Source: an uncultured Bdellovibrio sp. (GTDB lineage: Bacteria > Bdellovibrionota > Bdellovibrionia > Bdellovibrionales > Bdellovibrionaceae). Taken from it: a stretch of 64,000 nt of DNA. Of this stretch, positions 28,788-46,656 are shown piece by piece. Under the pieces are notes generated by a model. That model made no database searches and had not been told where the DNA came from. It saw nothing but the letters and a program-made list of their open reading frames with translations. The stretch's first letter is position 1. Each line of letters begins with the position of its first letter. Where the stretch lies: positions 96,001 through 160,000 of the forward strand of contig CAWVRN010000005.1 in NCBI GenBank assembly GCA_963932905.1. Reading direction: 5' to 3'. The translations under genes and the position numbers were made by a program.

Positions 28788-28840
28788 TCGGAGGAATCTA
28801 TATCATAATGCTGAAGGATGTCCATGGAGAAAGGATTGTT

Positions 28841-30751: not shown

Positions 30752-30766
30752 ATAAAAAATCCCAAG

Positions 30767-31005
30767 TTTTTTCGGGGGCGATAGACTCCCTTCTTAAGAA
30801 AGATTCCAGGTGTAAATGGGGATCTTTCTCTTGAATGGGAGTTTTCTTTTTTGGAGGACGCCCTCCAGGCTCGGCCACCGGTTGGCTACGCCAACAATAC
30901 CGCATCCATGCGGCGGTGGAGCCTCCAAAAAAGAAAACTCCCATTCAAGAGAAAGACCGAGCTCGAATCGTTTCTTAAGAAGGGAGTCTATCGCCCCCGA
31001 AAAAA
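30767..31005 (+). repeat. Rod-shaped 239-nt palindromic element, copy 1 (MITE/REPIN-like or structured ncRNA)
   Basis: Two perfect 35-bp stems (30767-30801/30971-31005 and 30823-30857/30922-30956) separated by an internal loop; branched apical region. Confidence 0.85.
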
Positions 31006-31203
31006 TTCTCCACACCGCAACCTTTTTTATGACCATAGTTGTTGTTCCGTTCTTGAGATGCTTTTGGATCATAAAAAAAATGTCGGATAAACCACGAAAC
31101 CCACACAAGGCAAAACCCTCGCTTTCAAAATCTCGGGGGATTTTCCTCTCACTGCGCCAAGTCCTCTAGTCCCAAAACAATTCCGAAAACTTCGTGAAAA
31201 AAG

Positions 31204-31220: not shown

Positions 31221-31287
31221 AACATCTATCCCGGGTTCATCAGCCAGATAAAAAAGAGTCAGTTTGGCTCTTCTACCGGGGGGTAGC

Positions 31288-34200
31288 GTGGGTTTAGGTC
31301 ACTTCTTTTTGCTTACATTTTTTTACTGTTTCTTCACCTTCGCGGACAGTGTAAATATTCCAATAAAAACTGTAAAAAAACCAGCGGCTGATTTAAGTTA
31401 TCAAGGCAAAAAAATTGATCCATCCGAAGCGGCTGACTTGATGTCAAAGCAAATTGATATCAGCCGATTGAACCCTGGCGACAATAAATTCTGGCAAAAC
31501 AAAACATATGAAGTTAAAGATGCTTCGCTCAACGCATTCCCATTAGGCTCTGCGGGGGTAAATTTTCAAGCAACCGAAGCAGTTATCAATGAATTATTAA
31601 CCATCACTATTCGGGTACAAGATGCGACAGTTAAAGATCGTTTTTATCGTTTAGCTATCAGCCGGTATTCACCTTCATTTATGATGAGAGCCGCCATGCT
31701 AAGAAAGCTTGGGTATTTTATCCCTGCACTCAAGCAATACTCAGATATGAAAGTGCGTTTTCAAAGTGAAGCTGAAAAAGATTTATTCCTAGAAAACATG
31801 CAAAAGGCGATGGTTCTAGACGTTAGCGATACTAAGTGGATCAAAGAGAATAACAAAACGGATCACTCTCTGACATTCAGTGACTGTGTTTTAGAGACGC
31901 CGTCAAACGAATACTACGATCTACATTGGGGTACGACTCCAAACCCAAAAAACCCTGCGATGATATCTATTTTAGAATTGTTCTCAAAAAATCGCGCCTT
32001 CCGTGCCTTGATAGTTCCGTATGTATTAGTTGATCTGCCAGAAAGTGTGAATCGGTTTTTGCCGAAATCAGCGAGTGTGGTTTCAGGGCATATTGTATTG
32101 AATCATCCTTTTGGTGCCGCATTCAGTGGAACAACATATGAGGACGTGAAATGGTTGCTGCTTCGTATGCAAAACTGGACTGAAAAAGACGTCCGTGAAA
32201 TCGTCGAGAACGCTAGCCTTCCAAAAGACATCAGTGAATTGGTATATCGCAAGTTGCTTTACAGAATTAGCAACATGTTTGAGTTCTTTGACATGAAGAC
32301 AAGCTTTCAAGCGGCGTTGCCAACCTTAGAATATGATGCCGCAGGTGGGATCATTAAAAGTGGTAAAGTCACACAAGAAACTATCGCGCCTTATCCATTC
32401 CGTTTTGCTCATGGCGACCCAGAAGCTCCGTTTCAAGAAGGCGATTACGTACGTTACTTTAAAATTCGCGGTATCACGGCCGTTGTGGCCACAGCGCTGG
32501 CCGAGATGTCTAAGAAATTACAAATTCAAGATGTCGGTGACCTAGCAAAACAACGGGCATTAGATATTCAGAATAAAATCAAGGATCATATTAAGAAAAA
32601 CCCGTTAGAACCACTTTATCAAAAAGTAGAAGCCTGGGGTGGCCCAGTGGCTGGCTTTAATGTGTCAGCGACCCGTCACGTTTCAACAGGAACATACTTT
32701 GAAAGTACGGCGCCTCTGCAGTTGGTAGATAACGTTACAGTGTCGGGTTCACTTGGTTATTTTATGGGAATCGACGGTGTCAATTATGTAAAACCATTTG
32801 CCGGTGTGAACGTGTCGTTGCTGCGTGACTACACTCATGTTCGTCCTATTTTATCTATCAAAGAAGGTGACAAAGAAAGTTGGGCCAATTTATTAATTCC
32901 TAAATATATGGCGAACATTTCAAAAATTTTGAAAGAGCCAAATATCGTCAGTACGTCAGAAACCGTAACCGAAGAAAAAGCCAGTTTAGACCAATTCTTA
33001 AATGATTTACGTGAGGGAGAAGTATTCACAATCACTGATTCCGTCGCAACCTCTGCGTATGCCCAAATTTCATCGTCTTTAGATGTATTGATGGGTATCG
33101 CACCGTTGAATTTCTTGAATTCGATCAGTTTAGGTGCCGACGCGTCTCGCATCATTTTACGTCAAACCAGCATCATGAAAACTAAAGATGGCGTTCAGAT
33201 TTTTGTTCGTAATCAAAAAAGTTCAGTCTATGGCCTAACTGTCGACGTCAATTACTTTATCAAAGTTTTACAAATCCGTTCTCAGACTAACAATAGTGAT
33301 TTATCGACTCATGCGTTCGTAGTGAACTACTACCCAGCTTTGCAACAATCGATTGATTCAAATCAAAGCCAAATTGAATTCGTAAATAAAAACAACGATA
33401 CAAAAGAAAATCTACGTCCGGTTTTATATAGTCTATTTAATTCGCAATCAAAAGATCTGTTATACGAAAAATTTAAATACAATAAATTTGAGATTGATCA
33501 CAATTTGAATACAGAGGAACTGCGCGCAAAATTCCTATGGTTCCGCACCACAAGTATGGAAGAAGACCACACGGTTAAATTACGATATCCTCGAGCCGAA
33601 GCTTATCCAGAGTTAGATCCAAAAGATGAAGAGATCGTTCTTTTCTCTGCTAAAAAAGGGGAATTGAAAGGGCGTGATTATTTAGGATTTGGTCTAGATA
33701 TTTTGCAAGCGATTTTAAATCGTAAATCGAATGTTAGTTGGGATTTAAGCAACGATTTCAATCCGAACCCATCAAGCACGCCGTTCGGTAATTCATACTG
33801 GCGTATCGTAAATTCTGAAGGCGATCTGAGCACAACTCAGAAAAAACCATATCCGAATATTGCTACAATTCAGCACGTGTGGGGTGGTTGGAATTTATCT
33901 AAAGACAAGTTCTTTAAAACGTTAGATGAAGTCGAGGCGGCAATTAAAGGTGTTAATTTATCATCGTACCGGTTACTTGAACGAGAAAATTTTCATCAGG
34001 TAAAATCGGTGGATTTCTATCGTATCACGGCTCAGTTATCATTGATGCCAAGCGCGCTGACAAAAATTCAAGATCTAATCAATCCAAAAGAATTTAAAGT
34101 AGATAAACAAAACGTAAACTTTATCGTTTCAAGATTGTTCAAAAAGTTATCCGAAACTTTAGGTTCGAAAGAACGCGATGCTGATCGCGCCATGTTTATC

Positions 34201-34689
34201 GGTATTATGTCAGTTTTTGGTAACGGTGACTATCAAAAGGGCTACACGCAATACTATTATGAATGTAAGCAGTACCATGAAAATAAAAACGGAAGGGGTG
34301 GATCGCCGCAAAATACGTATGCTTGGTACAATGGCAGTTCTTATGAATGCTTAATGCCATGGATTCAGAAACTGATCGATCTGTCGACAAAATTCCCTAA
34401 AGAGAAAAAAGAGCAGATTAAATGGTTAACCGAAGTTCTTTACGTGCTTGATGAGCGTATTCCGCTGCAACAATTATTAAAGTACTTAACTCCAGAAAAC
34501 TACATTTACCTTGTTCGTGTGAATGGTTTTAGAACAGGTGATGAAGATGGTGAAATCCAATATTTTTCTAATACGTTAGGTGATCCAACTAAAAATATCG
34601 AATATTCGAATGGTCTAATCCAGATGTTCAGTCAAAGAACGGGGATTACATCCGTAGAGTTAGATCGATCACAAGGGAGTTTCCGATGA
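31288..34689 (+). CDS. Large secreted hypothetical protein (about 1130 aa)
   Basis: Long ORF with signal-peptide-like N-terminus; GTG 31288 follows a G-rich RBS; stop overlaps the next start (ATGA). Confidence 0.85.
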   Translation: MGLGHFFLLTFFYCFFTFADSVNIPIKTVKKPAADLSYQGKKIDPSEAADLMSKQIDISRLNPGDNKFWQNKTYEVKDASLNAFPLGSAGVNFQATEAVINELLTITIRVQDATVKDRFYRLAISRYSPSFMMRAAMLRKLGYFIPALKQYSDMKVRFQSEAEKDLFLENMQKAMVLDVSDTKWIKENNKTDHSLTFSDCVLETPSNEYYDLHWGTTPNPKNPAMISILELFSKNRAFRALIVPYVLVDLPESVNRFLPKSASVVSGHIVLNHPFGAAFSGTTYEDVKWLLLRMQNWTEKDVREIVENASLPKDISELVYRKLLYRISNMFEFFDMKTSFQAALPTLEYDAAGGIIKSGKVTQETIAPYPFRFAHGDPEAPFQEGDYVRYFKIRGITAVVATALAEMSKKLQIQDVGDLAKQRALDIQNKIKDHIKKNPLEPLYQKVEAWGGPVAGFNVSATRHVSTGTYFESTAPLQLVDNVTVSGSLGYFMGIDGVNYVKPFAGVNVSLLRDYTHVRPILSIKEGDKESWANLLIPKYMANISKILKEPNIVSTSETVTEEKASLDQFLNDLREGEVFTITDSVATSAYAQISSSLDVLMGIAPLNFLNSISLGADASRIILRQTSIMKTKDGVQIFVRNQKSSVYGLTVDVNYFIKVLQIRSQTNNSDLSTHAFVVNYYPALQQSIDSNQSQIEFVNKNNDTKENLRPVLYSLFNSQSKDLLYEKFKYNKFEIDHNLNTEELRAKFLWFRTTSMEEDHTVKLRYPRAEAYPELDPKDEEIVLFSAKKGELKGRDYLGFGLDILQAILNRKSNVSWDLSNDFNPNPSSTPFGNSYWRIVNSEGDLSTTQKKPYPNIATIQHVWGGWNLSKDKFFKTLDEVEAAIKGVNLSSYRLLERENFHQVKSVDFYRITAQLSLMPSALTKIQDLINPKEFKVDKQNVNFIVSRLFKKLSETLGSKERDADRAMFIGIMSVFGNGDYQKGYTQYYYECKQYHENKNGRGGSPQNTYAWYNGSSYECLMPWIQKLIDLSTKFPKEKKEQIKWLTEVLYVLDERIPLQQLLKYLTPENYIYLVRVNGFRTGDEDGEIQYFSNTLGDPTKNIEYSNGLIQMFSQRTGITSVELDRSQGSFR

Positions 34690-37600
34690 TTAAATCATTC
34701 TTGACCCTAATCGGGATTACGTTACTGCTGGCTCCGTCAGCTTATTCGATCGAGCGTGCGATTTTGTCTGTGAAGCCTCATCACAAAATCAAATCTAAGG
34801 ATTTGAATTTGATTTTGGATTCTACGCTGATTGTAAATCGCAAAAATCTTTGGACCGACAAAGAAAAGGAACTATTAAAATCTTTAAATCTAAATAAATT
34901 TTCAAAGGCATGGATCGTGGAGGTGAATACTTACGCCGATCTTTTAATGCTTGAGCGTAAGATTAATCAAAACGGATTGCCGTTAAACGTGGATGACTAC
35001 GAATTACCTATTCAGAGTCTAAATGCTGACTGGCAATCTTTGCAATGGGGTATGAAGAATACCGGACAAGCGCAGAATTTAGATTTGGATCCCGTGCAAA
35101 CATTCCGTGTTCCTGGTGTTGTAGGTGAAGACATTCAAAAAATTCAAAATAAAATAGGCACACTGAAACGCAAAGTGCGCGTAGCCGTATTAGATACGGG
35201 AGTCGATAAAAAGCATCCCAATTTAAAGAACGTTCTTTATAGAAACGAGCTGGAATGTAAACAATTAGAGGCATTTGAAGCGTGTCTAGTTGAAGATGGG
35301 ATGGATCGCGACAGCTGCGAAAAGAAATTCATGACGTCGGAAAATCCTAATCTGGATCCTGACCATAACGGCTATCCGTTGGATTGCACAGGCTGGAGTA
35401 TCTTAGGTAATGCTGACAATCCAAGTGGCATATTGGGTCGTCCTGATTTTGGCGATGATCAAGGCCATGGAACTCATGTGGCGGGTATTATCGGTGCGCA
35501 AATGGATCCTCAATTCCTGGGCGTCAGCGGTGTTTCTAGCAACGTTGAAATTATTCCGATCCAAGTAATTGGTAAAAATCCATCTGAGCCAGTAAAACCT
35601 TTGTCGACAGATATCAATATGGATACGTTGTCGCCAGTAGAATTAAAGCAAAAATGGGCAAAGAAGTCGTTGGGGGATTTAGTCGCACGTGGGTTATTGT
35701 ACGCGTTCAAAGCCAAAGCCGATGTCGTGAACCTATCGTTAGGTTGGCCGGCCGCACGTGATTCTGAATTAATTCGCGGATTGATCACGGAAATGATCAA
35801 TCGCGGAATTATCATAGTGGCAGCCGCCGGCAATGATTCCACGAAGGCATTGCTACATCCGTGTGCTTACGAAGGCGTTATCTGTGTAGGTAGTCATGGA
35901 CCAGACGGATCTGTAAGTCACTTTTCTAATTATGGTAGCGGGGTTGATATGTTAGCTCCGGGCCTAAATATTCTAAGCACATTCCCAGTGGATCAACGTC
36001 CTGTTCGCTTTAGAAAAACGTGGGGCTTTGAATATTTATCGGGAACATCCCAAGCGTCGCCATTTGTCGCTGGTGTAGTGGCAGAGATGATTGCACAAGG
36101 TATTCCAAGAAATGAAATTTACCCGCGATTGATGGCAACGACTCGATTGCCAAAAGTGAACCAGGGTTTGTTTGAAGGTGTTCCGCATCTGCCAGATAAA
36201 TTGGTAACATTGAAATCCACTGTAGAGGCAAAAATGACATTAGCAGGTAATATGGACTTCCGTAAAGCGATGGATGTTAAACCAGCGATTGTCATCCTTC
36301 CTACAATCAAAGAAAAAACAACTTTGAATTGGAATGGGAATGATAAAAAACTGAAATTTAGTTTCGGACTTAAAAATTATTGGCAAGACACGGATTTTTC
36401 TCGCGTACAATTACGTGCAAAATTTAAAGACGATGAGAAATCTCATCGCCCATCCGTCGTTTCTATTTCTGGTTTACCAAAATCAGGAAAATGGGAAGGC
36501 GGTCAAAAAATGATTGTTACCGTTGATGCCGAGCTTTATAAAACAGAAGCTCAACGAAATATGGTTCCATCTGATCTGGAACTTGAAGTCTGGGTGATGG
36601 TGGATACTAAGCTCAGCAAATATTTTGTTCAAGAGTTTGAATTAGTCGTTCCGTTTACGGCCACAACTCTGTTGCCAGAGATGACGAAATACCAAGTGAA
36701 GCAATTTCCGACAGGACGAGTTGAGTGGAATCCTGTGGATGAAACATACGATTATACGCCTAACAAACGTGATTATATTTTGTCGTCACAAAGTAAGAAA
36801 GAAACTTCGTTTTCGTTGTTAACTCAAGATCGTTCGGGTGCCTATCAATTAGTGGGATCAAATGTTCTGAAATTGCCGAAACCGGTAGAGCAACTTCGTT
36901 CGCAGTACTTGGTACGCATGCTACAAGGTAACGAGGCGATTTACGCACTTGGTTTCCTAGATGAACCAGAAGATGACGACGACAATGCACTTCCTAAAGT
37001 GTATTTTTCGATCTTTGATCATAATTTTAAATTGGTGGAAGAGTTTGCGTACGATTCTGATAAAGCTGTAATGCCGTATCAAATTTATTGGATGACGATC
37101 GGTGATAAAAAACGACCGGCTTGGGTTGGGTACGGAAAAGACCCATCGAAAAAACCAAGCTTAATTAACTTGTGGGAAAATCCGGCCGGTAACGAAGAAT
37201 TAAAAATTCGTTTCTACTTTGTCGATGACAAAAATCAGTTAAACGCCGTCGACGCCGGTGAAGAATACGAAATCATCGATGTCCTTGAACCAAGTCTTGA
37301 TCAAAAAATACGGGGCATTATTCCCGTGTTGATGGCCAAAAATCAAGGGTCAGAAATCAAGCCATCCTATATCTATGACTTTGCTCAAGCCGAAGTGGTT
37401 AATGGAACAGTTCAAAATCTAAAAAAATTAGATGCACTGTCAAAGAACTATCAGTATCGCAACTTGATCGAAACTAAGGTCGACAAGATTTTAAATTTGG
37501 ATGCTAGCGAAGAAGAGTTTGCAGGAACTTATTGGTTCAATGAAAATGGAAACCGCGAACAACGTGTAACTTTTATCCATTTCCAATCGAAAAAATATGT

Positions 37601-38114
37601 CGATCAAGTTTTAAAACCAATGAATCCACTTTACGATTCCGCGTTGTTAGTTCGCGCGTCATTTTTGGGTGAGCAACGTGCGGGAACATTCGTGTTAACC
37701 AATAGTGAAATTCAATATCATGATTTGTTGTCGGGCCAGACGGTTGGGCGCAGTTTAGAGCGTTATACGTTTTATCCTGACGATTTCTTTACCAGTGTGT
37801 ATATGCCGATCACGGTTTTTGATTCCAAAAACCCAAAACAAAAGATCCCTGCGATTTTTACGACGGAGAGCAGCGAAATCAATCGCGGTGTCAAAATAGT
37901 TGTCCCGATTTTTGCAAAGGCACAAGGATCGAATCAAACTTCGTTAACAAAAGAGAAAGTGGTTGAACTTATGACACCAGCGAAACTAAGACTTGAAACG
38001 CAAAGAACTTCTGGTTGTCGTCCACTCAACACACCCGTTTTCTTGGGCGAAAAAGGATACGCATTTGATTATTTCTGCGGGGATAGCATTTTAAGGGTAC
38101 CGATAAAATTATAA
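34686..38114 (+). CDS. Large secreted S8 serine protease with about 600-aa uncharacterised C-terminal extension
   Basis: Signal peptide; VLDTG, HGTHVAG, AAAGN, GTSQA. Confidence 0.92.
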   Translation: MIKSFLTLIGITLLLAPSAYSIERAILSVKPHHKIKSKDLNLILDSTLIVNRKNLWTDKEKELLKSLNLNKFSKAWIVEVNTYADLLMLERKINQNGLPLNVDDYELPIQSLNADWQSLQWGMKNTGQAQNLDLDPVQTFRVPGVVGEDIQKIQNKIGTLKRKVRVAVLDTGVDKKHPNLKNVLYRNELECKQLEAFEACLVEDGMDRDSCEKKFMTSENPNLDPDHNGYPLDCTGWSILGNADNPSGILGRPDFGDDQGHGTHVAGIIGAQMDPQFLGVSGVSSNVEIIPIQVIGKNPSEPVKPLSTDINMDTLSPVELKQKWAKKSLGDLVARGLLYAFKAKADVVNLSLGWPAARDSELIRGLITEMINRGIIIVAAAGNDSTKALLHPCAYEGVICVGSHGPDGSVSHFSNYGSGVDMLAPGLNILSTFPVDQRPVRFRKTWGFEYLSGTSQASPFVAGVVAEMIAQGIPRNEIYPRLMATTRLPKVNQGLFEGVPHLPDKLVTLKSTVEAKMTLAGNMDFRKAMDVKPAIVILPTIKEKTTLNWNGNDKKLKFSFGLKNYWQDTDFSRVQLRAKFKDDEKSHRPSVVSISGLPKSGKWEGGQKMIVTVDAELYKTEAQRNMVPSDLELEVWVMVDTKLSKYFVQEFELVVPFTATTLLPEMTKYQVKQFPTGRVEWNPVDETYDYTPNKRDYILSSQSKKETSFSLLTQDRSGAYQLVGSNVLKLPKPVEQLRSQYLVRMLQGNEAIYALGFLDEPEDDDDNALPKVYFSIFDHNFKLVEEFAYDSDKAVMPYQIYWMTIGDKKRPAWVGYGKDPSKKPSLINLWENPAGNEELKIRFYFVDDKNQLNAVDAGEEYEIIDVLEPSLDQKIRGIIPVLMAKNQGSEIKPSYIYDFAQAEVVNGTVQNLKKLDALSKNYQYRNLIETKVDKILNLDASEEEFAGTYWFNENGNREQRVTFIHFQSKKYVDQVLKPMNPLYDSALLVRASFLGEQRAGTFVLTNSEIQYHDLLSGQTVGRSLERYTFYPDDFFTSVYMPITVFDSKNPKQKIPAIFTTESSEINRGVKIVVPIFAKAQGSNQTSLTKEKVVELMTPAKLRLETQRTSGCRPLNTPVFLGEKGYAFDYFCGDSILRVPIKL

Positions 38115-38184
38115 TTCAGTCCGCATTTATGTGGGCATAAAAGTAAAGTGAAACAAGTTATCTATAAAGGAAAAAGGGGGAAAA

Positions 38185-39123
38185 ATGTTTAATATGAGTT
38201 CTAAGTTCAAAGGGGCAATGCGTTTAGTGCTAGTCACGGGCTTTGCGATTGGTTTTTTTGGCTGCGGCGGTGGCGGCGGTAGTTCGCCTGTGAATGTTCT
38301 TTACTATCCGTACCAGACGATATTTGAAAAGGTTTGTATGACAGTTGAACCGACTCCAGGCTGTACATTCGACGCTAGGACGGGGGAGCGAATTTCAGTT
38401 AGCGCGGATCCCGCTTATGACCGCAGGGGCCATGCGACGGACGACATGTGGTTTGTAGAATTTGATGAATATGGAATGGCCGCAGTCTACGATCAAGACC
38501 GAATTCTTCGGGAATACAAAGACGTAAGCGAATTCGGCGGCTATTTAGGGACTTACGATATAGGTACTGGCGGGTACAATGTTGCGACTGGTGAAACAAG
38601 ATTAGTTTGGGAAGATATCCGTAACGGTGCTTACTACTTAGGTAAAAACGGAGTTCTTTACTCTGCCAACTTAATCGAATCTAACTTCGGTCAAGCGATC
38701 AACAACAAGAATGCGTCTAAAGCAACAGACACTAACTTTGCGGCTTTAAACTCTGATGCTAACAAAATCTTAGTAGCTAAAGGTGCTGAAAAGTTAATGA
38801 AAGAATATGGTTTCAAAAAAGCTCAAGCGACAGCGGTGGCTAGTGTTCTGAACAACTTCGCAGTGACTACATCACTTCGTGGTAAAGTAACAACTAAAGA
38901 CATCGACGTAACTTTCAAAGGTGCTTTTGGCGTTCCATTCTCGGATGCATTGACTGCTGTTAACAAACTACGTGAAGGTGATAAATCTTCTATGAGAGAA
39001 CTAACAAACCGGTCAGCTTCAGCGTTGGGTTTAAAACCTCACCAAGCTCAACAATTCATCAAAGGTATGTATAAAAAAGCCCTAACTCAATGGGGTTACG
39101 ATGTGGATACGATCAGCTGGTAA
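38185..39123 (+). CDS. Lipoprotein, hypothetical
   Basis: Lipobox FFGC followed by GGGGGSS tether; strong RBS; terminator downstream. Confidence 0.8.
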   Translation: MFNMSSKFKGAMRLVLVTGFAIGFFGCGGGGGSSPVNVLYYPYQTIFEKVCMTVEPTPGCTFDARTGERISVSADPAYDRRGHATDDMWFVEFDEYGMAAVYDQDRILREYKDVSEFGGYLGTYDIGTGGYNVATGETRLVWEDIRNGAYYLGKNGVLYSANLIESNFGQAINNKNASKATDTNFAALNSDANKILVAKGAEKLMKEYGFKKAQATAVASVLNNFAVTTSLRGKVTTKDIDVTFKGAFGVPFSDALTAVNKLREGDKSSMRELTNRSASALGLKPHQAQQFIKGMYKKALTQWGYDVDTISW

Positions 39124-39185
39124 CCTCCAGGTGATCACGTGTCAGCTAGCTGGTAATTTCTACCGGTTAGTTTGTTTCAAACCAC

Positions 39186-39213
39186 AAAAAGCCTGCAGAA
39201 ATGCAGGCTTTTT
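39186..39213 (+). terminator. Rho-independent terminator
   Basis: AAAAAGCCTGCA-GAAA-TGCAGGCTTTTT. Confidence 0.9.
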
Positions 39214-39235
39214 GCTTTGAGGGCTCTATCCTTTC

Positions 39236-39264
39236 TTGCCTAATCGCGTCGTGCGTTTTAGAAT
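39236..39264 (+). promoter_or_regulatory. Putative sigma70 promoter giving a near-leaderless mRNA
   Basis: TTGCCT-N17-TAGAAT, 8 nt before ATG 39273; no SD. Confidence 0.55.
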
Positions 39265-39272
39265 AGGCCTCC

Positions 39273-41438
39273 ATGTCTGTGATCGTACTACCTGAAAAAT
39301 ACTATCTAACCCATTTCTTTGAGCTTATTCAGCATTTAGAAGCTCACTACCAACAGGTATTTGAACCGGCCCACGTAGACTTCCTGAAATCCTTTTATGC
39401 GCTTTCCGAAGATGCCAAGTGTGCCTATGTTCGCATGATCAATCGAAAAGGTTTGGTTTTTAGTAATGTTTCGTTCACTAAATATCCCGAAATCGCAGAT
39501 CCGATGGCGGCGTTAAAAGAGTTAGACGAAGCTCGATTTCTTTCTCGAGTGAACGAGTCAGATAAGCCTCTTTTAACAGAATTTTTAACCAAAACAGATT
39601 TGGCCAAATGGTTGAAAAAATCGGGATTACGGGTGGCCTCGTCGGAATCTCGTGGTGATTTAATTATCAAAGCGCAAACACATCAAGATCAACTCCTGCT
39701 AAGTAATTTGGACATGCATACTGATCTTTTTGTCCAACGTCGATTTGAAGAATTAGATTATTTGTTATTTTTATATTTTGGAAAAATTCAACGAAACTTA
39801 ACGTTATATACATTACGTGATTTGGGTATTCGCCAAGCCCATTCATTAAAGAATGATTTTAAAGCTCGATACACAGATTTGTCGTCAGCAAAACAAGACT
39901 ATTTTTTCTATTCAGAAATTGAACGTCTTGGTGAGGTTCAATCTGAAGCAGAAATTTTAGAAAAACTTGAGTTCAGTCGTTCCGCTCCATCCAATCCTAT
40001 TAAAGATCAATGGTTGTTGGGCGTGGCGATTAAATTTGAAGATTTGAATCGAGACATTACGCTGTTGGCTTTGAATAGCTGCCAAAGTCACCCGGCGCGT
40101 GAGCGGAAGGCTCGATTGTTGTACAAATGGGAACAAGTAGAACAATCGAAGGCCGTTTTGGACGCGATAATAGAAGATCCACATTGTGACGAAGAACTTT
40201 TATTCGCCGAAGATTTTTTTGCGAGAAAATTCGGTAAAAAACGAACGGGTTCATTGACAGATATTTTAAATAATTCAAAACAGGTCACACTCAGTGATAT
40301 TTTTTTAAAAAAACCAGAGCAAGGCGTAATCGATTTATATGAAAAACAAGGTTACACCGGTCAGTTTGTTGAAAACTATCTTTGGGTAGGTTTGTTTGGA
40401 TTGATTTTCTGGGATGAATTGTTCACCGGTCCTATGGCTAAATTGTTTAATCCTTTTGATCGTAAACCAGCAGATCTGACTGGTCCGGATTTCTACAATC
40501 GCAATGAAGTACTTTTAGAATCAAAATTAGTTCAAATGAATGACTATAACGCGATCGAATTTATTATCCTTAAAACAGTGACGGAACACTATGGTAAGAT
40601 GAATGATTTGTTTCAATGGTCCACAAACCTAGCGCCAATGGTTTTGGACTTCGTCAGAAAGACCAGAAATAAAAATGTCGCTCATATCTTAAGAACTATG
40701 GCACGTCGGTTTGATGTTTATCACAGTGGTTACCCTGATTTGATGCTTGAGAAAAATGGCGAGATTAGTTTCATCGAGGTAAAGGCTGATGGGGACTCAT
40801 TAAAATATAAGCAATTGTCAAAAGCTCGTTTGCTTCGTGAAGCTGGCTTTGATGTTGAAGTTTTAAGGGTCAAATGGCAAAGCGATCCTAATCAAGTTTA
40901 TGTAGTTGTAGATTTGGAAACGACGGGTGGTGCTCCTCATTCTCATCGTATTACCGAAATTGGTGCTGTCAAAGTTCAAGGTGGAAAAATTATCGATGAA
41001 TTCCAAACTTTGATTAATCCCGAGCGACCGATTCCCCCGTTTATCGAGAAACTAACTGGTATTACTAACGAGATGGTGGCAACGGCTCCGAAATTCTCTG
41101 AAGTGGCTGAACGATTTAATCAATTTACGGACGGTGCAATTTTCGTCGCACACAACGTGAAATTTGACTATGGTTTTATTCAAAAAGAGTTTTCTAGAAT
41201 TGAACAAGATTATTCGCGCACACATTTGTGCACCTGTATTGGCATGAAGAAAAGTTTCCCTGGGATTAAATCTTATGGATTGAAAAACTTAACCAATCAT
41301 TTTCAAATCTCGTTGACCCAACATCATCGCGCGTTGTGTGATGCTCAAGCATCAGCAGAACTATTATTATTAATGACAGGCTATAAGGAACCTAATCCAC
41401 GCAAAACGGAAGAACCCGTAGCTGAACAAGAAACCTAA
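39273..41438 (+). CDS. FAN1-like VRR-NUC nuclease fused to a DEDDh (DnaQ-like) 3'-5' exonuclease
   Basis: FAN1-type N-terminus (YYLTHF...YVRMINRKG); GYPDL...FIEVK PD-(D/E)xK motif; VVDLETTG, AHNVKFD, HHRALCDA. Confidence 0.88.
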   Translation: MSVIVLPEKYYLTHFFELIQHLEAHYQQVFEPAHVDFLKSFYALSEDAKCAYVRMINRKGLVFSNVSFTKYPEIADPMAALKELDEARFLSRVNESDKPLLTEFLTKTDLAKWLKKSGLRVASSESRGDLIIKAQTHQDQLLLSNLDMHTDLFVQRRFEELDYLLFLYFGKIQRNLTLYTLRDLGIRQAHSLKNDFKARYTDLSSAKQDYFFYSEIERLGEVQSEAEILEKLEFSRSAPSNPIKDQWLLGVAIKFEDLNRDITLLALNSCQSHPARERKARLLYKWEQVEQSKAVLDAIIEDPHCDEELLFAEDFFARKFGKKRTGSLTDILNNSKQVTLSDIFLKKPEQGVIDLYEKQGYTGQFVENYLWVGLFGLIFWDELFTGPMAKLFNPFDRKPADLTGPDFYNRNEVLLESKLVQMNDYNAIEFIILKTVTEHYGKMNDLFQWSTNLAPMVLDFVRKTRNKNVAHILRTMARRFDVYHSGYPDLMLEKNGEISFIEVKADGDSLKYKQLSKARLLREAGFDVEVLRVKWQSDPNQVYVVVDLETTGGAPHSHRITEIGAVKVQGGKIIDEFQTLINPERPIPPFIEKLTGITNEMVATAPKFSEVAERFNQFTDGAIFVAHNVKFDYGFIQKEFSRIEQDYSRTHLCTCIGMKKSFPGIKSYGLKNLTNHFQISLTQHHRALCDAQASAELLLLMTGYKEPNPRKTEEPVAEQET

Positions 41439-41448
41439 GGAGTGAAAT

Positions 41449-41979
41449 ATGAATTGCCCATGTGGAAATTCCAAACCGTATGAGTCATGCTGTGAGCCAT
41501 TTATCAAAGGTACAGCGTTTCCTGAAACGGCGGAACAATTAATGAGATCGCGCTATACTGCTTATGTAAAAGGTGATGTTCAATATATTCACGATACGTT
41601 AGCGCCAGAATCACGTCATGATTTCGATATGGCCAGCACTAAAAAATGGGCTCAACAATCAAAATGGTTAGGGTTGAAAATTCAATCGGCTCAGGGCGGA
41701 GCGAACGATAAAAAAGGTAAAGTAGAATTCACGGCGACCTACAATGATAAAAAAGAAACGCTAGAACATCACGAGGTGTCTGAGTTTCGTAAAGATGAAA
41801 ATAATCATTGGGTGTTTGTCGGCGGTGAAGCCCACACGCATAAAGAAGGTGAGGGGCACCACCATCATCATACTAAAGTGGAAACTGTGGTTCGTGCAGA
41901 ACCTAAAATTGGTCGCAATGATCCGTGCACCTGTGGAAGTGGTAAAAAATATAAAAAATGCTGTGGAGCTGCGGCGTAG
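41449..41979 (+). CDS. ychJ: YchJ family protein with SEC-C motif
   Basis: CPCG...[33 protein letters not shown]. Confidence 0.9.
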
Positions 41980-41997
41980 ATTTTTTGAACCCCCCGG

Positions 41998-42237
41998 TTT
42001 TTGGGAAGGGAAGAGACTTCTTCTTTTCCTTGAAGCTTGGTTCTGGGTGGTGCGGGGATCTTCCTTTTGAGATGCTTTTTTAAAAAGATATAAAAAAGCC
42101 TCGGCAGTCCTCGTCCGCGCTGAACGCGTGTCTGTGGAACTCATTTTTTTATATCTTTTTAAAAAAGCATCTCAAAAGGAAGACCAGGCTTGAATTGGCG
42201 CTTCGAGGAAAAGAAGATGTTTCTTCCTTTCCAAAAA
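41998..42237 (+). repeat. Rod-shaped 240-nt palindromic element, copy 2
   Basis: Perfect 39-bp inner stem (42059-42097/42145-42183); outer stem with G.T wobbles; same internal-loop motif as 30767-31005. Confidence 0.85.
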
Positions 42238-42387
42238 TTACCCAAATACCCAAAAACTTAGATTTCGTCCATTTTCTTGGCTCTTCACAAGCTTGGCCGC
42301 CTCATTTCCTATATAATGGCTTTGGTGGCAGCGAATTCATTGATTAATTTCACGGGGGAAATTTAGAGTCGAATTGCCTAGGTAAGT

Positions 42388-42915
42388 ATGCTAAACAGCG
42401 AGTCTATGAGTTGTATTAGTTGCCAAGGTACGAAAGCTTTATTGAAATGTGGTTGCTGTGAGAGTGAAGTATGTAAGTACTGTGCTCATATCTTGCCAGA
42501 AGATAATTTTTCCTTTCTGACAGAAGTGGCGCCTGAATTAAAGCATTCAGTTTACTGTCCACCTTGTTACAACACCCACGTATCTGACGTTTGGGATGAT
42601 TATCAGGCAACTATGGAAAAAGCGAAAAATATTAACGTTTATTTATCAAATCAAGGTAAAGAAACTCGACTAATTAAGCGGATTCAAAAACCAATCAAAG
42701 TGTCGGGCTGTCAAGATCATGATGAAACCCTTCTTCGTCTTGCTTTCCAGGCTGTAAAAGCCGGCTTTAATGGCTTAGTCGATGTCGATTTAGTCTCTCA
42801 AAAAGTGAAAATCGCTGGCTATCAAACTCAAACATGGAGTGGCAAGGGAACTCCAGTTAATTTGTCTGGGCATCATATAGTAAAAGATAGATCTATCTGG
42901 CAAAATCCAAACTAA
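42388..42915 (+). CDS. Hypothetical protein with Cys-rich N-terminal zinc finger and YbjQ-like C-terminal domain
   Basis: CISC...CGCC...CKYC...CPPC; LAFQAVKAGFNGLVDV...WSGKG. Confidence 0.65.
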   Translation: MLNSESMSCISCQGTKALLKCGCCESEVCKYCAHILPEDNFSFLTEVAPELKHSVYCPPCYNTHVSDVWDDYQATMEKAKNINVYLSNQGKETRLIKRIQKPIKVSGCQDHDETLLRLAFQAVKAGFNGLVDVDLVSQKVKIAGYQTQTWSGKGTPVNLSGHHIVKDRSIWQNPN

Positions 42916-43328
42916 GTAGCCCTTATATCGTAATTTCCTGGGAAAGTTGTCGATAGAAACATTTTAGGCAACAAGAATGTCGCAATCGCAATGGCAAAAA
43001 GGGCAAGACCAATCATTAAAAATTTTTTAGCTTTAACGTAGTTTTTCTTAGCATTTATTCGTGCGATGAAAAAAACAACCAAGGTTCCTGCACAAAAAAT
43101 CAACGAAATAACGTACGAGATTTTTGCGTACATTTGATTTCGTTCGGAAATTCCATAACCCCCATCGAGTTTCGAATTGTATCCGCCCACCATGTTGGCG
43201 CTTTCAGGTAGGGTGGCTGCATCCGATGATATTTTTGCTTTGGCAACATCTGAAGAATCGACAGCGTCCGCAAAACAAAAGCCAGTAGCAAATAAAAAGA
43301 AAGTCAGAAAATATTTAAAAAAAATCAT
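42912..43328 (-). CDS. Hypothetical membrane protein
   Basis: Signal-like N-terminus and two TM segments; AAGGA RBS before ATG 43328. Confidence 0.55.
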   Translation of the reverse strand: MIFFKYFLTFFLFATGFCFADAVDSSDVAKAKISSDAATLPESANMVGGYNSKLDGGYGISERNQMYAKISYVISLIFCAGTLVVFFIARINAKKNYVKAKKFLMIGLALFAIAIATFLLPKMFLSTTFPGNYDIRAT

Positions 43329-43671
43329 AGTGGGTTCCTTTTCCGTTAGCATTTACAGAATTGAAATTCGAGTCAATTTTTTTTCCTTTTGTACCAAAAA
43401 TAAAATCCCAAAAAGAAAATAGAAATCCATAATTGGTTTCTGGATTGTTGGAATCATGATGAATTTTATGAGAATCGGGGAATACGAAAACCTTTCTTAA
43501 GTTTTGGGTCACAGTGGTATTCGGAATGGAGTAATCCAGATGTGAAAGTAGAGCCTGTACTGAAAATATATGGGCAGCCAAAAGTACATGCCATTGATTA
43601 ATGTTGAGCATGACAGAAACAGCTAGCATGGCAAAACTTCGTGTGTCATTTACATAGGCAGTGTCTATCAT
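43315..43671 (-). pseudogene. Truncated sterol desaturase / fatty acid hydroxylase (C-terminal fragment)
   Basis: PDSHKIHH and NYGFLFSFWDFIFGT motifs present; N-terminal His boxes absent from the ORF. Confidence 0.6.
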
Positions 43672-43905
43672 TTACTCAATCCTGGAGACTGGTAACGAAT
43701 AGAATCTACTTCTATTTTCCAAGTGAAATGGCCTTTAGGTCAGGCTCATCCGATGACAAAACAGATCACCTAAAAAGTCTTTTAAATCGCTTTCACTAGC
43801 CTCAATGCAAAGCGATCGTCTCAAACCAAGACTAAGGCAGAATTTTAGAGTTCTGCCTTTAGAAAACCCCTAAAAATCACGATAGAGGAGGTAGGGGAGA
43901 TTCTC

Positions 43906-44553
43906 ATGTCATGGGGCGATATTCCAAGTTGGGCGAATAATACTGCGTTAGCATTGATGCAAACTCTTAGCTATGTGGATCCGATTACCTACGAACACTG
44001 TTGTCGTGTTGGAGCTTTAAGCCGCAAACTTGCTCTCAGTGCTGGTTTGAATGAATACGAACAAGCGGTTGCCGAGTACTCAGGTTTATTTCATGATCTA
44101 GGTAAAGTCGGAATTTCGAACGAGATTATTGCTAAACCTGGTAAGCTTGATCCAAAAGAGATCGATATCATGAGAAATCATCCGATCATTTCCGAAAATA
44201 TTTTAAAGCCGTTGGCTGAAAAAGATTCCTTCTTTCGCCAGCTTTTGGCGCCCGTTCGTGGTCATCATGAGCGTGTGGATGGTGAAGGTTATCCGGATCG
44301 TCTCGTTAGCGATAAAATCAATTTACTAGCACGTATCATCCTGATTGTAGACACCTATGATGCTATGTCGCAGACTCGTTCCTACCGCAAGGGTTTGCCT
44401 AATGAAGTGGTATATGCTGAACTAAAACGCTGCTCGGGTACCCAGTTCGATTCGCAATTAGTAAAGACATTCTTGGACGCCCACAAGTTTTGGTCGCAAT
44501 CTAAAGAAACGGACGAAAACTCAATTGTCGAGTACTTAAAGCGGGCAGCTTAA
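43906..44553 (+). CDS. Stand-alone HD-GYP domain protein (cyclic dinucleotide phosphodiesterase family)
   Basis: EHCCRV, FHDLGK, HHERVDGEGYP, DTYDAM...RSYR, QFD. Confidence 0.92.
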   Translation: MSWGDIPSWANNTALALMQTLSYVDPITYEHCCRVGALSRKLALSAGLNEYEQAVAEYSGLFHDLGKVGISNEIIAKPGKLDPKEIDIMRNHPIISENILKPLAEKDSFFRQLLAPVRGHHERVDGEGYPDRLVSDKINLLARIILIVDTYDAMSQTRSYRKGLPNEVVYAELKRCSGTQFDSQLVKTFLDAHKFWSQSKETDENSIVEYLKRAA

Positions 44554-44680
44554 TCCCGCTCTCTGTTTAATGTCTTTACGAGCTAGTTTTGCGGCACCAA
44601 TGAAAATGAATCCCAAACTGATGTTGTATTAATATGACATCAATTATGTGAACCATGATATGCCCCTGAAGCTACCCGGA

Positions 44681-45475
44681 CTAAGACTTATTAGTACTTT
44701 CAAATATTTTATCTGCCGATTTCGCAATAAAGCCTTGATATAATTTACCGTCCGCCATCGGATAGCGTTTCGCAAATTCATAGTAACACGCGGGAATTTT
44801 ATACGTACCGTCTTCAAACAAAATGGCAACTTCTTTCGCCATGGTTGAGCTTTGTTCCAACATCTCTTCAGGTGTGCCTTTGATCTCGCCACCTGATTGG
44901 TTCAATTGAAAACCGTTTGTTTTGATAAAGTTGTTCAATTTAGAAAGATCGTTGAATTTCTTTAGGCGGTTCACATTCACGGTGAAATGATTTGCTCGGA
45001 ATCCATACGCATACGTCCAGGCAGCATATTCACTATCTTTGTAAAGTGCCTCGTATACTTTGTGTGATTTTTTCCAAGTTGTTCCTGAATACAAAAATTC
45101 TGGCTTTTTCGTAATACTGTAATCGAAATCTTTAAAGTGAGCTTCAATAGTTGTGCGTACAAAGGGAGTAGTTTTCTCAAGCTCTAATTCACTGATGAAA
45201 ACTTTAGGCTGATTTGTATCCGGATGTTCATAGTGTTTTGCGTAGAGTTTCTTTTCTTTGAAAATATAGTCATTTTTTTCTATGTAACCTAAATCGATAA
45301 AGTGTTTGGCTAATACGGCAATACTCATACCCGGCAGATTGAACGTACGAAACGCCACGTGATCATTCAAAACAGTTTCATGTTGGTCACTCAGGAGGCG
45401 GTAGATCTTAAGAGCCTCTGGATTAAGAGATGTGTAGTCGTCCCAGAGTTGATTGAAGATGGGTAAGCTGGTCAT
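44681..45475 (-). CDS. DUF1338 family protein (2-oxoadipate dioxygenase/decarboxylase-like)
   Basis: NDHVAFRTF, KVFISEL, SEYAAW...NHFT, YYEFAKRY. Confidence 0.85.
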   Translation of the reverse strand: MTSLPIFNQLWDDYTSLNPEALKIYRLLSDQHETVLNDHVAFRTFNLPGMSIAVLAKHFIDLGYIEKNDYIFKEKKLYAKHYEHPDTNQPKVFISELELEKTTPFVRTTIEAHFKDFDYSITKKPEFLYSGTTWKKSHKVYEALYKDSEYAAWTYAYGFRANHFTVNVNRLKKFNDLSKLNNFIKTNGFQLNQSGGEIKGTPEEMLEQSSTMAKEVAILFEDGTYKIPACYYEFAKRYPMADGKLYQGFIAKSADKIFESTNKS

Positions 45476-45633
45476 TTGAACTCCGCTGGTTGGTAACGTA
45501 TTTTTCGATAGGCATTTTTATACCTATCTTTAACAATAAAATGGATTTTATCGTAAAGTCTAGCCCGCCCATGGACTGACTCCGTATCTAATACGGGGCA
45601 TTAAGCCTTGGTTGTTCGCTGTGATACCGGACA

Positions 45634-46656
45634 ATGAAATATATGAGTCGAAAAACAATTCCTGAGCTGGAACTAATCAATCAATTGAAAGAGGAATTGG
45701 GTCACATCGCTCGATTTGAAATCATCGGTGAATCCCAAGAAGAAAATCTGCGCATGCCGATTCACAAAATCAGTTTTGGCAGCACCGATCCAAAAGCACC
45801 GGTATTGGGTTTGGTCGGAGGCGTTCACGGGCTGGAACGTATCGGATCACAAGTGACGATTGCTTTACTAAATTCATTTTCGCAGCTCTATCAATGGGAC
45901 GATACCATTCGTCACAATCTTGAAAAAATCAGAGTGTTTTTCATTCCATGTGTGAATCCCATCGGAATTTTGAAAAAACGTCGATCTAATCCAAACGGTA
46001 TCGATATTATGCGGAATGCGCCCATCGATGCAGAAGATAAAGTCCCGTCTTTGTTAGGTGGTCACCGTATTTCGAATTTACTTCCTTGGTATCGCGGCGA
46101 GCATATGGAATCAGAAACAGCGGCGCTTGTGAATCATGTTAAAAAAGAAATAGAACATGCAAAAGTCGCGGTCACAGTGGATTTCCATTCGGGCTTTGGT
46201 TTTCAAGATCAAATTTGGTTTCCTTATGCGAAAACGCGAAAACCATTTGCCGATTTAGGTTATTTTGATTCGTTCATCGGGTTGATGAATAAAACGTACC
46301 CTAATCATTTTTATAAAATTGAACCTCAAGCGTACCTGACTCACGGAGATGTTTGGGATTATTTATATGACTGGAAAAGGAGTTTAAATCAACAGGACAG
46401 CGTTTTTTTACCAATGTGTTTAGAAATGGGTTCGTGGATGTGGGTGAAGAAAAACCCTCTACAAATTTTTACGCCTGAAGGGGCTTACAATCCGGTTAAA
46501 ACACATCGATATCGTCGTGCTTTACGTCGCCATAATACATTTTTTGAATTTCTAATTCGTGCCTTGTATTCGCCGCAAAGTTGGTACCCGCTGGCTCCCG
46601 ATGAACTTGAACTTCACAGAAAACAAGCAATGGAAAAATGGTATGCAAAACGTTAG
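45634..46656 (+). CDS. M14-family zinc carboxypeptidase-like protein
   Basis: GVHGLE (HxxE), VNPIG, R.NPNGID.MRN, DFHSG, LEMG. Confidence 0.85.
   Translation: MKYMSRKTIPELELINQLKEELGHIARFEIIGESQEENLRMPIHKISFGSTDPKAPVLGLVGGVHGLERIGSQVTIALLNSFSQLYQWDDTIRHNLEKIRVFFIPCVNPIGILKKRRSNPNGIDIMRNAPIDAEDKVPSLLGGHRISNLLPWYRGEHMESETAALVNHVKKEIEHAKVAVTVDFHSGFGFQDQIWFPYAKTRKPFADLGYFDSFIGLMNKTYPNHFYKIEPQAYLTHGDVWDYLYDWKRSLNQQDSVFLPMCLEMGSWMWVKKNPLQIFTPEGAYNPVKTHRYRRALRRHNTFFEFLIRALYSPQSWYPLAPDELELHRKQAMEKWYAKR

Follow-up and report, generated by a model that had tools for sequence, protein, structure and literature searches.

A hairpin of 240 nt lies directly 3' of a ychJ-like gene in an uncultured Bdellovibrio sp., at positions 41998-42237 of the window (the whole stretch of 64,000 nt analysed here). 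Its outer stem is imperfect. A first-pass annotation noticed that most of the imperfections are G.T on the plus strand and would be A.C mismatches on the minus strand. This was read as selection on a folded single strand in the sense orientation of the upstream gene, and hence as a sign of a role at the RNA level or of a strand-specific role of single-stranded DNA. Is one strand of the hairpin really favoured and, if so, is this a property of the local mRNA or of the hairpin itself? The hairpin turns out to belong to a family of long structured repeats, called rods here, and the family provides most of the answer.

The window holds two rods, and the one behind ychJ is copy 2. A rod has an outer helix (P1) and an inner helix (P2), capped by an apical domain. 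P1 and P2 are separated by J1, an asymmetric internal loop conserved in sequence. Throughout, the sense strand of a rod is defined as the strand carrying GGGGATCTT. The features of copy 2 and its surroundings are as follows.

41449-41979, plus strand: upstream gene, ychJ-like, 176 aa, stop TAG at 41977-41979 (Pfam YchJ_M-like 6.6e-32, SEC-C 6.1e-11)
41987-41997, plus strand: 5' flank GAACCCCCCGG, a weakened version of the family GAAAAACCCCCG (family alignment, flank listing)
41998-42036, plus strand: P1, 5' arm, variable sequence (inverted-repeat search, arm-against-arm ladder)
42037-42043, plus strand: junction-proximal TTGGTTC; TTGG stands opposite TTGG, giving four tandem wobbles
42044-42058, plus strand: J1 5' strand TGGGTGGTGCGGGGA, G-rich, ending in the invariant GGGGA (invariant alignment columns)
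42059-42097, plus strand: P2, 5' arm, 39 nt, perfect (inverted-repeat search, covariation)
42098-42144, plus strand: apical domain of type B, with conserved GGCAGTCCTCG ... CTGYGGAACTC (alignment of 8 type-B copies)
42145-42183, plus strand: P2, 3' arm (inverted-repeat search)
42184-42198, plus strand: J1 3' strand CCAGGCTT plus GAATTGG
42199-42237, plus strand: P1, 3' arm, with a bulged C at 42199 (inverted-repeat search, ladder)
42238-42262, plus strand: degenerate tail; TTACCCA is kept, the family GCCGCAGCC core and T-run are absent

The inverted-repeat search gives an inner stem (42059-42097 with 42145-42183) of 39 nt that is 100% complementary, as the first-pass annotation had described it, and outer arms (41999-42036 with 42200-42237) that are 87% complementary. 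The paired strings singled out at that stage are all present in their places: GGGAAGGGAAGAGAC (42003-42017) with GTTTCTTCCTTTCC (42219-42232), CCTTGAAGC (42028-42036) with GCTTCGAGG (42200-42208), and TTGGTTC (42037-42043) with GAATTGG (42192-42198), the last with four wobbles in a row. When the arms are laid against each other, the outer stem shows 10 deviations in total. These are three isolated G.T, four tandem G.T/T.G (TTGG versus TTGG), two transversion mismatches (G.A and T.T) and one bulged C. The share of G.T is 7 of 10, confirming the claimed majority, and no A.C occurs within the outer helix. One A.C is found at the base of the inner stem (A42058 versus C42184). Folded as RNA, the plus strand reaches -128.5 kcal/mol (z -12.4), a value equalled by none of 200 shuffles, and the minus strand -108.7 kcal/mol. 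DNA parameters give -73.4 kcal/mol for the plus strand and -67.8 kcal/mol for the minus strand. The hairpin is far beyond chance, and the comparison of both strands, proposed as a check, favours the plus strand. A further hairpin, weak and terminator-like, precedes copy 2; it carries a T-run and overlaps the stop of ychJ.

The second rod of the window, copy 1, occupies 30767-31005, directly behind a plus-strand ORF. Its parts are listed below.

30754-30766, plus strand: 5' flank AAAAAATCCCAAG, 2 nt past the stop TAA (30749-30751) of a 647-aa ORF (28808-30751)
30767-30801, plus strand: P1, 5' arm, 35 nt, perfect (inverted-repeat search)
30802-30822, plus strand: junction-proximal GATTC and J1 5' strand ending in GGGGA
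30823-30857, plus strand: P2, 5' arm, 35 nt, perfect (inverted-repeat search)
30858-30921, plus strand: type-A apical domain, in which a closing stem encloses two small hairpins (RNAalifold, 4 type-A copies)
30922-30956, plus strand: P2, 3' arm (inverted-repeat search)
30957-30970, plus strand: J1 3' strand CCGAGCTCGAATCG
30971-31005, plus strand: P1, 3' arm (inverted-repeat search)
31006-31028, plus strand: tail TTCTCCACACCGCAACC plus TTTTTT

The helices of copies 1 and 2 differ almost throughout, and a core GGGGATCTTYCTYTTGA ... TCAARAGRAAGACCRRGCTYGAAT around the inner stem is common to both. A scan of genome contigs for both core halves returned 60 loci, among which the window's own genome is absent; 9 are true and 51 are chance matches. 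All nine true loci come from three Bdellovibrio/Bdellovibrionaceae MAGs with about 40% G+C. An nhmmer profile of the family finds 12 copies in the window and the nine loci and none in the 51 others. Down to E=10 it adds one further marginal match and nothing else. The family thus counts 12 members, the two rods of the window and 10 from the three MAGs. One of them, the second copy of locus L043, was found by the profile, the core pattern having missed it by a single base change. The closest locus, L028 (Bdellovibrio sp. 28-41-41), is syntenic with window positions 32064-45662 at about 80% identity. The core flanking P2, GGGGATCTTYC ... GRAAGACCRRGCTYGAAT, is exact in both window copies and invariant or nearly so in 11 aligned copies; the twelfth reads AAGACT.

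Rods are about 240 nt long; with flanks included the length is about 290 nt. From 5' to 3' it consists of the flank GAAAAACCCCCG or a similar sequence, P1, the J1 5' strand, P2, the apical domain and then the 3' arms. P1 has about 35-40 bp and starts with a T-run and a G-run, and P2 has 35-39 bp and starts with TCTTCC. Both differ in sequence from copy to copy and are complementary within each copy. The 5' strand of J1 is G-rich and ends in GGGGA; its 3' strand, CCGAGCTYGAAT in the family, lies between the 3' arms of P2 and P1. The usual flanks are GAAAAACCCC on the 5' side and, on the 3' side, CCCACGCCGCAGCC followed by one base and T6-8. The element is found between a few and about 25 nt past the stop codon of a housekeeping gene, for the most part oriented as that gene is. 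A recognisable tail of this kind (CCCACGCCGCAGCC, one base, T-run) is present in copy 1 and nine other copies. Copy 2 lacks it and keeps only TTACCCA; its nhmmer match ends at 42259, which is profile position 282. Apical domains are of two types. Type A (copy 1, L022, L048 and L058) has a consensus fold of 22 pairs, 6 of which are changed on both sides among the four sequences (RNAalifold). Type B (copy 2 and seven others) is conserved in sequence and its consensus fold is weak. The resemblance noted earlier between the ends of the two apical loops, CTGTGGAAC (42132-42140) in copy 2 and CGGTGGAGC (30914-30922) in copy 1, is there, and these ends belong to types B and A, respectively. A 65-residue reading frame over copy 1 served as a proxy for spread in metagenomes; the protein search yielded no relative of it. 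The rods are a dispersed non-coding family, known to date from a single clade of Bdellovibrio-like genomes of about 40% G+C.

The family is apparently undescribed. Rfam 15 gave no match in the whole window at gathering thresholds, and at permissive E-values it gave generic hairpin models alone (for example, 58 bits where 245 are needed). A tRNA/tmRNA scan of the window found none. With blastn at word size 11, copy 2 had no match in phages and plasmids, and neither copy had a match in 5,426 E. coli genomes. No such element is described in the literature consulted on Bdellovibrio repeats, hairpins and structured RNAs, which covered few subscription journals, so an earlier report is possible.

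Among described elements, the palindromic intergenic repeat, as represented by REPIN, ERIC, Correia and REP/BIME elements, is the nearest kind. REPINs are reported to have a variable spacer kept paired by compensatory changes, conserved inverted motifs, vertical persistence and a tail complementary to another place in the element, for which a guide-like role was proposed (PMC3116915). Like them, rods are dispersed extragenic hairpins with compensated helices and a tail complementary to the apical domain. Unlike them, rods are 2-3 times longer, have two long variable helices, an asymmetric conserved internal loop and a structured apical domain of two types, and lie tightly behind stop codons with an orientation bias. 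A check of REPIN/REP features found a conserved inverted core and a compensated spacer, yet a size of about 240-290 nt and no recognisable REP unit. A REPIN has about 100 nt in total and is an inverted pair of a short, conserved, palindromic REP with a hairpin-forming spacer between. REPINs go with a RAYT (Y1 transposase) gene in the genome, usually beside a REPIN cluster; no RAYT gene occurs among the scanned ORFs of about 203 kb. ERIC elements are imperfect palindromes of about 127 bp with a conserved sequence, found in transcribed intergenic regions and thought to fold in RNA. Rods share with them the character of an intergenic palindrome, but rod helices vary freely. Identity with ERIC or REP is ruled out by sequence, blastn having found no match in the 5,426 E. 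coli genomes.

Correia elements (CREE/NEMIS) of Neisseria are reported to give transcripts that RNase III can bind or cut, with control of neighbouring genes (PMC2649163). Rods resemble them as inverted repeats adjoining genes, but the conserved terminal inverted repeats and core of Correia elements are not seen. The TA duplication and the promoter and IHF sites of Correia elements are not seen in rods either. In E. coli, REP/BIME are small palindromes behind genes, with local action on 3' UTRs (bioRxiv 10.64898/2026.03.23.713779). A REP has 20-40 nt, whereas a rod has about 240 nt, modular conserved loops and no E. coli match. Unlike palindromic intergenic repeats in general, rods conserve their loops while their helices vary.

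Three other classes were rejected. A MITE has conserved terminal inverted repeats and a target-site duplication; in rods the outermost parts of the helix are the most variable portion, and no direct repeat flanks any of the 12 copies. In an intrinsic (Rho-independent) terminator a U-run comes immediately after a G+C-rich stem; a rod has an A-run directly behind it on both strands. The T-run of copies with a tail starts at least 15 nt after P1, and terminator scans flagged none at rod ends on the sense strand. Integron attC sites have 57-141 bp, RYYYAAC ... GTTRRRY ends and a place in a cassette array beside an integrase; rods have 240 nt and T-run/G-run and C-run/A-run ends, and no integrase is found among 49 window ORFs.

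The helices of the rods are under pairing constraint, and P2 covaries strongly. In a MAFFT alignment of 11 copies, 93.7% of the cells in P2 and one apical hairpin pair; shuffling the partners gives 79.7%, and none of 500 shuffles reaches the observed value. The number of pairs changed on both sides is 26 of 41, against 13.3 in shuffles (again 0 of 500), and sliding the partners lowers pairing to at most 63%. P1 has no column-by-column homology and its arms were therefore compared instead. Complementarity between a copy's own arms is 0.85 for the outer helix and 0.96 for the inner one, against 0.62 and 0.73 between arms of different copies; the outer within-copy value is an underestimate, because the comparison windows use fixed offsets. 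P2 is free of mismatches in 6 of the 12 copies, namely both window copies, L022, L048 and L058 (33-39 bp) and L043a (33 bp folded). Counts for the helix cores of all 12 copies are the following.

Outer helix (P1) core: Watson-Crick 378; G.T 13; A.C 3; other mismatches 14; gap columns 4
Inner helix (P2) core: Watson-Crick 445; G.T 3; A.C 9; other mismatches 5; gap columns 2

Conserved A.C sites are found at the base of P2 in 12/12 copies, where the A may alternatively be read as bulged, and in distal P2 in seven of the eight type-B copies. On the antisense strand these sites would read G.U.

Copy 2 has an orthologue. In L028 a rod sits at the same site behind ychJ and is 76% identical to copy 2, in locus flanks that are about 80% identical. 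The differences in P2 between the two rods, indels included, are mirrored in both arms. The copy is therefore old and its pairing has been kept or restored. Counts from a plain alignment of this pair were discarded, since mirrored indels make intact pairs look broken. The L028 orthologue keeps the tail core and the T-run that copy 2 has lost, and P1 of copy 2 carries more mismatches than that of most copies. Copy 2 is thus a partly eroded member of the family.

Ten of the 12 copies point the same way as the ORF that precedes them on the 5' side and start 16-37 nt past its stop codon. These ORFs are housekeeping genes with no relation to one another: RF3, RNase Y, RodA/FtsW, YchJ, a SIS-domain protein, DUF3108 and two without an assigned family. 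L022 and L058 are the exceptions. Each is placed between a pair of tandem genes that run on the opposite strand, and no promoter-like site is found upstream on the element's own strand. In L043, two copies about 480 nt apart have opposite orientations, each behind its own convergent gene, which argues against a simple replication-strand rule. The orientation expected by the first-pass annotation is thus the common one when the 12 copies are counted (p=0.04), but it falls to 8/10, p=0.11, when only independent loci are. The 10 independent loci are obtained by treating copy 2 and L028 as one orthologous site and L043a and L048 as another. With middling confidence, we take the rods to be a new structured repeat of the REPIN/ERIC-like sort, unusual in its size, which belongs to a Bdellovibrio clade and is probably transcribed together with the upstream gene as its 3' UTR.

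We then return to the strand. Both arm sets of each copy were folded together without the apical domain. These arms-only RNA cofolds come out more stable for the sense strand in nine of the 12 copies, and the mean difference is -7.2 kcal/mol. The gap amounts to 10-17.5 kcal/mol in five copies, and the antisense strand is never ahead by more than 1.4 kcal/mol. The polarity has a Wilcoxon p of 0.007, or 0.027 for the 10 independent loci (one copy dropped per orthologous pair). DNA parameters favour the sense strand in 8 copies and the antisense strand in 2, with 2 ties (mean -2.4, p=0.02). They give the same direction, and RNA and single-stranded DNA are therefore not separated. L022 and L058, although antisense to the genes beside them, have the same fold polarity as the others; the polarity therefore belongs to the element and not to the local mRNA. 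We conclude that a single strand of fixed polarity is favoured, as a property of the element, and that this strand is usually, not always, the sense strand of the upstream gene. Such a one-strand folding bias suggests that rods act as RNA or as single-stranded DNA.

Mismatches tell less than folding energies do. Rod G.U pairs in MFE folds number 54 on the sense strand versus 21 on the antisense strand, but much of this excess comes from sites shared by descent, above all the TTGG/TTGG segment beside J1. Raw counts in the helix cores of the 12 copies are 16 G.T versus 12 A.C. A tally of G.U against A.C over all copies, as had been suggested, gives 11 isolated G.T versus 5 A.C at non-shared sites of the variable helices (p=0.21), and the conserved A.C sites exist beside these. 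In the case of copy 2, whose G.T bias had first been taken as the signal of selection, four of the seven G.T were inherited as a motif of the family and are not fresh mutations. This TTGG/TTGG motif is common to L025 and L022 and, in part, to others. The rest, three isolated G.T versus no A.C, are too few for significance. The proposal of selection on a folded sense strand is thus partly supported, by the polarity of the family and by the common orientation.

Could the bias arise with no selection on a strand? In a decaying copy 2, a mutational asymmetry linked to replication or transcription would favour G.T over A.C on a G-rich plus strand. In favour of this, GC skew on the plus strand is positive in 31 of 32 two-kb windows. 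Copy 2 lacks the tail and T-run, shows more defects in P1 than most copies do, and has isolated mismatches that are not significant. The G.U excess is also larger in copies with a G-rich sense strand (43:13 versus 11:8), with a Fisher p of 0.14. However, 4/7 of the G.T predate copy 2 as a motif common to other copies, and the P2 helix of copy 2 retains perfect pairing along its 39 bp, contrary to free decay. The polarity is family-wide, moreover, and the sense strand is ahead in three of the four copies in which it is locally C-rich. L058, one such C-rich case, has a polarity of -14.5 kcal/mol. We regard this neutral account as unlikely.

The tail has a further property. For apical domains of either type, its sequence complements the 3' half of the domain, with duplexes of -16 to -24 kcal/mol. 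At most 6 of 300 shuffled tails are as good in 7 of the 12 copies, the exceptions being copy 2, L021, L040, L043b and L058. For copy 1 the duplex with its own apical domain has -18.9 kcal/mol, equalled by 1 of 300 shuffled tails, and for copy 2, with its degenerate tail, 229 of 300 shuffles are as good. Tails are nearly identical across copies, so these amount to one or two independent observations only. Both helices lie between tail and apical domain, and a pseudoknot within one molecule therefore looks impossible. An arrangement of tail and apical domain as two terminator halves is ruled out by the same geometry, as the 3' arms of both helices intervene. Two smaller features were noted by eye. 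The J1 octamer CGAGCTYG (CAGGCTTG in copy 2) is self-complementary, on the sense strand only with G.U allowed. In a candidate closing helix, P0, the A-run of the 5' flank would pair with the T-run past the tail. The bases beside the runs pair in 8 of 11 copies, as C-G five times and as T-A three times. Own flanks give -9.1 kcal/mol versus -9.2 for mismatched pairs of flanks, and P0 forms in 2 of 11 MFE folds. P0 is kept as a tentative feature only.

Copies have also been exchanged or added. At the RodA/FtsW site, L043 has a type B copy (L043a) and L048 a type A copy with unrelated helices. The differing apical types behind orthologous genes imply replacement or independent insertion. Within one genome, L028 and L040 have an outer arm in common (86% over 37 nt). 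In L040 the outer arm on the 3' side has ceased to match that on the 5' side. Duplication or recombination therefore occurs in the family, as does decay of some copies.

Such events bring in the idea of a selfish DNA element of the REPIN type, in which folded single-stranded DNA of one polarity is mobilised by an enzyme encoded elsewhere. The hairpin and loops would then serve the enzyme, the position behind stop codons would reflect tolerated or targeted insertion, and any effect on the mRNA would be a by-product. The exchange at RodA/FtsW and the arm common to L028 and L040 fit this idea, as does the tail-apical complementarity of the 7/12 copies. Conserved loops, compensated helices and a complementary tail match what was reported of REPINs (PMC3116915). 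The polarity is kept in the two antisense-lying copies and is seen with DNA parameters too, and perfect helices would fit templated copying. Against it, no transposase, integrase, reverse transcriptase or HUH/Y1 family is found among the ORFs scanned; these span only about 203 kb, so the point is weak. Among window ORFs with 90 aa or more, 49 of 50 were scanned; for the loci, where the cut-off was 110 aa, the number is 102 of 121, and one additional ORF was included. The 19 locus ORFs outside it are the remaining ones of L028 and L048, syntenic with the window and L043. No target-site duplication or direct repeat is visible by eye in the flanks of the 12 copies. Orientation is independent of local GC skew, which along the copies is positive in 8 and negative in 4, and opposite copies stand side by side. 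The old orthologous copy behind ychJ is near-perfectly paired in situ, for which selection on mobility alone is insufficient. On balance a selfish DNA element is less likely than not, but it is the main rival to the reading that we prefer.

A bolder version deserves mention. The rods might be vertically inherited, self-propagating single-strand replicators. A sense copy (RNA or single-stranded DNA) would be placed behind stop codons by a trans-acting enzyme, pairing between tail and apical domain would guide or prime the process, and arm would be copied from arm, which would explain the perfect helices with mirrored indels. We think this highly unlikely. If true, it would be a new mobility mechanism, beyond another palindromic repeat.

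The long near-perfect helices, highly variable and set between conserved processing-like motifs, also recall small-RNA precursors or regulatory RNA genes in their own right, with helices that RNase III would cut into guides against other transcripts or foreign nucleic acid. The sole near-matches in Rfam are generic microRNA-precursor hairpins, far under threshold. The variable arms match only other copies (in the window and the nine loci), however, and blastn found nothing in phages and plasmids (copy 2 only) or in the 5,426 E. coli genomes. The two copies without a co-oriented upstream gene have no promoter-like sites upstream. We give this reading hardly any weight.

In the reading that we prefer, a structured repeat co-transcribed with the gene before it, the rod would be transcribed as the 3' UTR of an upstream housekeeping gene and the sense-strand transcript would fold into a long double-stranded RNA rod. 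At the 3' end of the mRNA the rod may be a barrier to 3' exonucleases, a substrate of RNase III, or both. Conserved loops and tail could be recognition sites for a trans-acting factor, which may also spread or homogenise the copies. Points against this reading include the mismatch-free P2 of six copies and the mirrored indels of orthologues, which copying of one arm from the other would give more easily than selection on RNA pairing, and the weak terminator-like hairpin at the ychJ stop.

It has long been asked whether intergenic palindromes persist because they serve the RNA biology of the host or because they spread themselves as DNA, and most families are too short to address this. The rods have about 70 freely varying paired positions per copy, which would mean hundreds of informative sites per genome. 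Their variability would give real power to tests of G.U versus A.C and of orientation relative to transcription and replication. The conserved loops and tail point to a putative binding partner. Transcription of the rods, if it occurs, would place a 70-bp double-stranded RNA at the end of many housekeeping mRNAs in these predators and would imply an unusual form of 3' end control.

The copy of the rod-hairpin repeat family at L040 is decayed or recombined. In this copy (6708-6950, plus strand), the outer 3' arm is non-complementary to the 5' arm and the predicted fold reaches only about -70 kcal/mol, versus -123 to -159 kcal/mol for the other copies. Its 5' arm shares 86% identity with that of the L028 copy, both copies coming from one genome. 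Another irregularity is found in the L021 copy: in its tail, which lies after position 10186, CCCACGCC is separated from the T-run by about 17 inserted nt that are rich in G+C.

At L043, a rod-bearing locus of a Bdellovibrio or Bdellovibrionaceae metagenome-assembled genome, two type-B copies face each other, about 480 nt apart:

9946-10199, plus strand, first type-B rod copy
10677-10919, minus strand, second type-B rod copy, opposed to the first

The sequence common to these two copies extends past the T-run, and the apical domain of the first copy is lengthened by an insertion of 14 nt. A small ORF lies within the separating stretch. At L048, where a rod copy follows the orthologous RodA/FtsW gene, a masked run of N between the copy and the DUF3108 gene spans the expected site of the orthologue of the second L043 copy.

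Three large ORFs are notable in the same part of the window as the two rod copies:

31264-34689, plus strand, first ORF of a tandem pair located 3' of copy 1, about 1,140 aa
34686-38114, plus strand, second ORF of the pair, about 1,140 aa
39273-41438, plus strand, 721-aa ORF directly 5' of the ychJ-like gene

Pfam searches returned no match for the first ORF of the pair and a subtilase (Peptidase_S8) domain for the second. The 721-aa protein contains FAN1_HTH, VRR-NUC and RNase T-type exonuclease domains (Pfam); their presence in a single protein represents an unusual nuclease fusion. The majority of the window ORFs are on the plus strand, and plus-strand GC skew is positive in 31 of the 32 two-kb intervals covering positions 1-64000. 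Therefore, the entire window probably belongs to a single replichore in which the plus strand is the leading strand.

Terminator-like hairpins are observed close to several rod copies. One of them, recognized by eye (AAAACCCTCG ... CGGGGGATTTT, 31109-31147), is located about 80 nt 3' of the T-run of copy 1. A minus-strand match to the rod-family profile lies over this hairpin (31145-31109) but is marginal (E=0.084). Just 5' of copy 2, the ychJ stop codon is overlapped by a second terminator-like hairpin (41958-41986, plus strand), which is weak and has a T-run; at the equivalent place in the orthologous L028 site, the T-run is missing. Finally, the terminator-like hairpin at L058 (10365-10387) is cleanly palindromic and has T-runs; it separates the rod copy from the stop codon of an HMGL-like gene. 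This copy, which lies antisense to its neighbouring genes, may therefore be outside the transcript of the HMGL-like gene.
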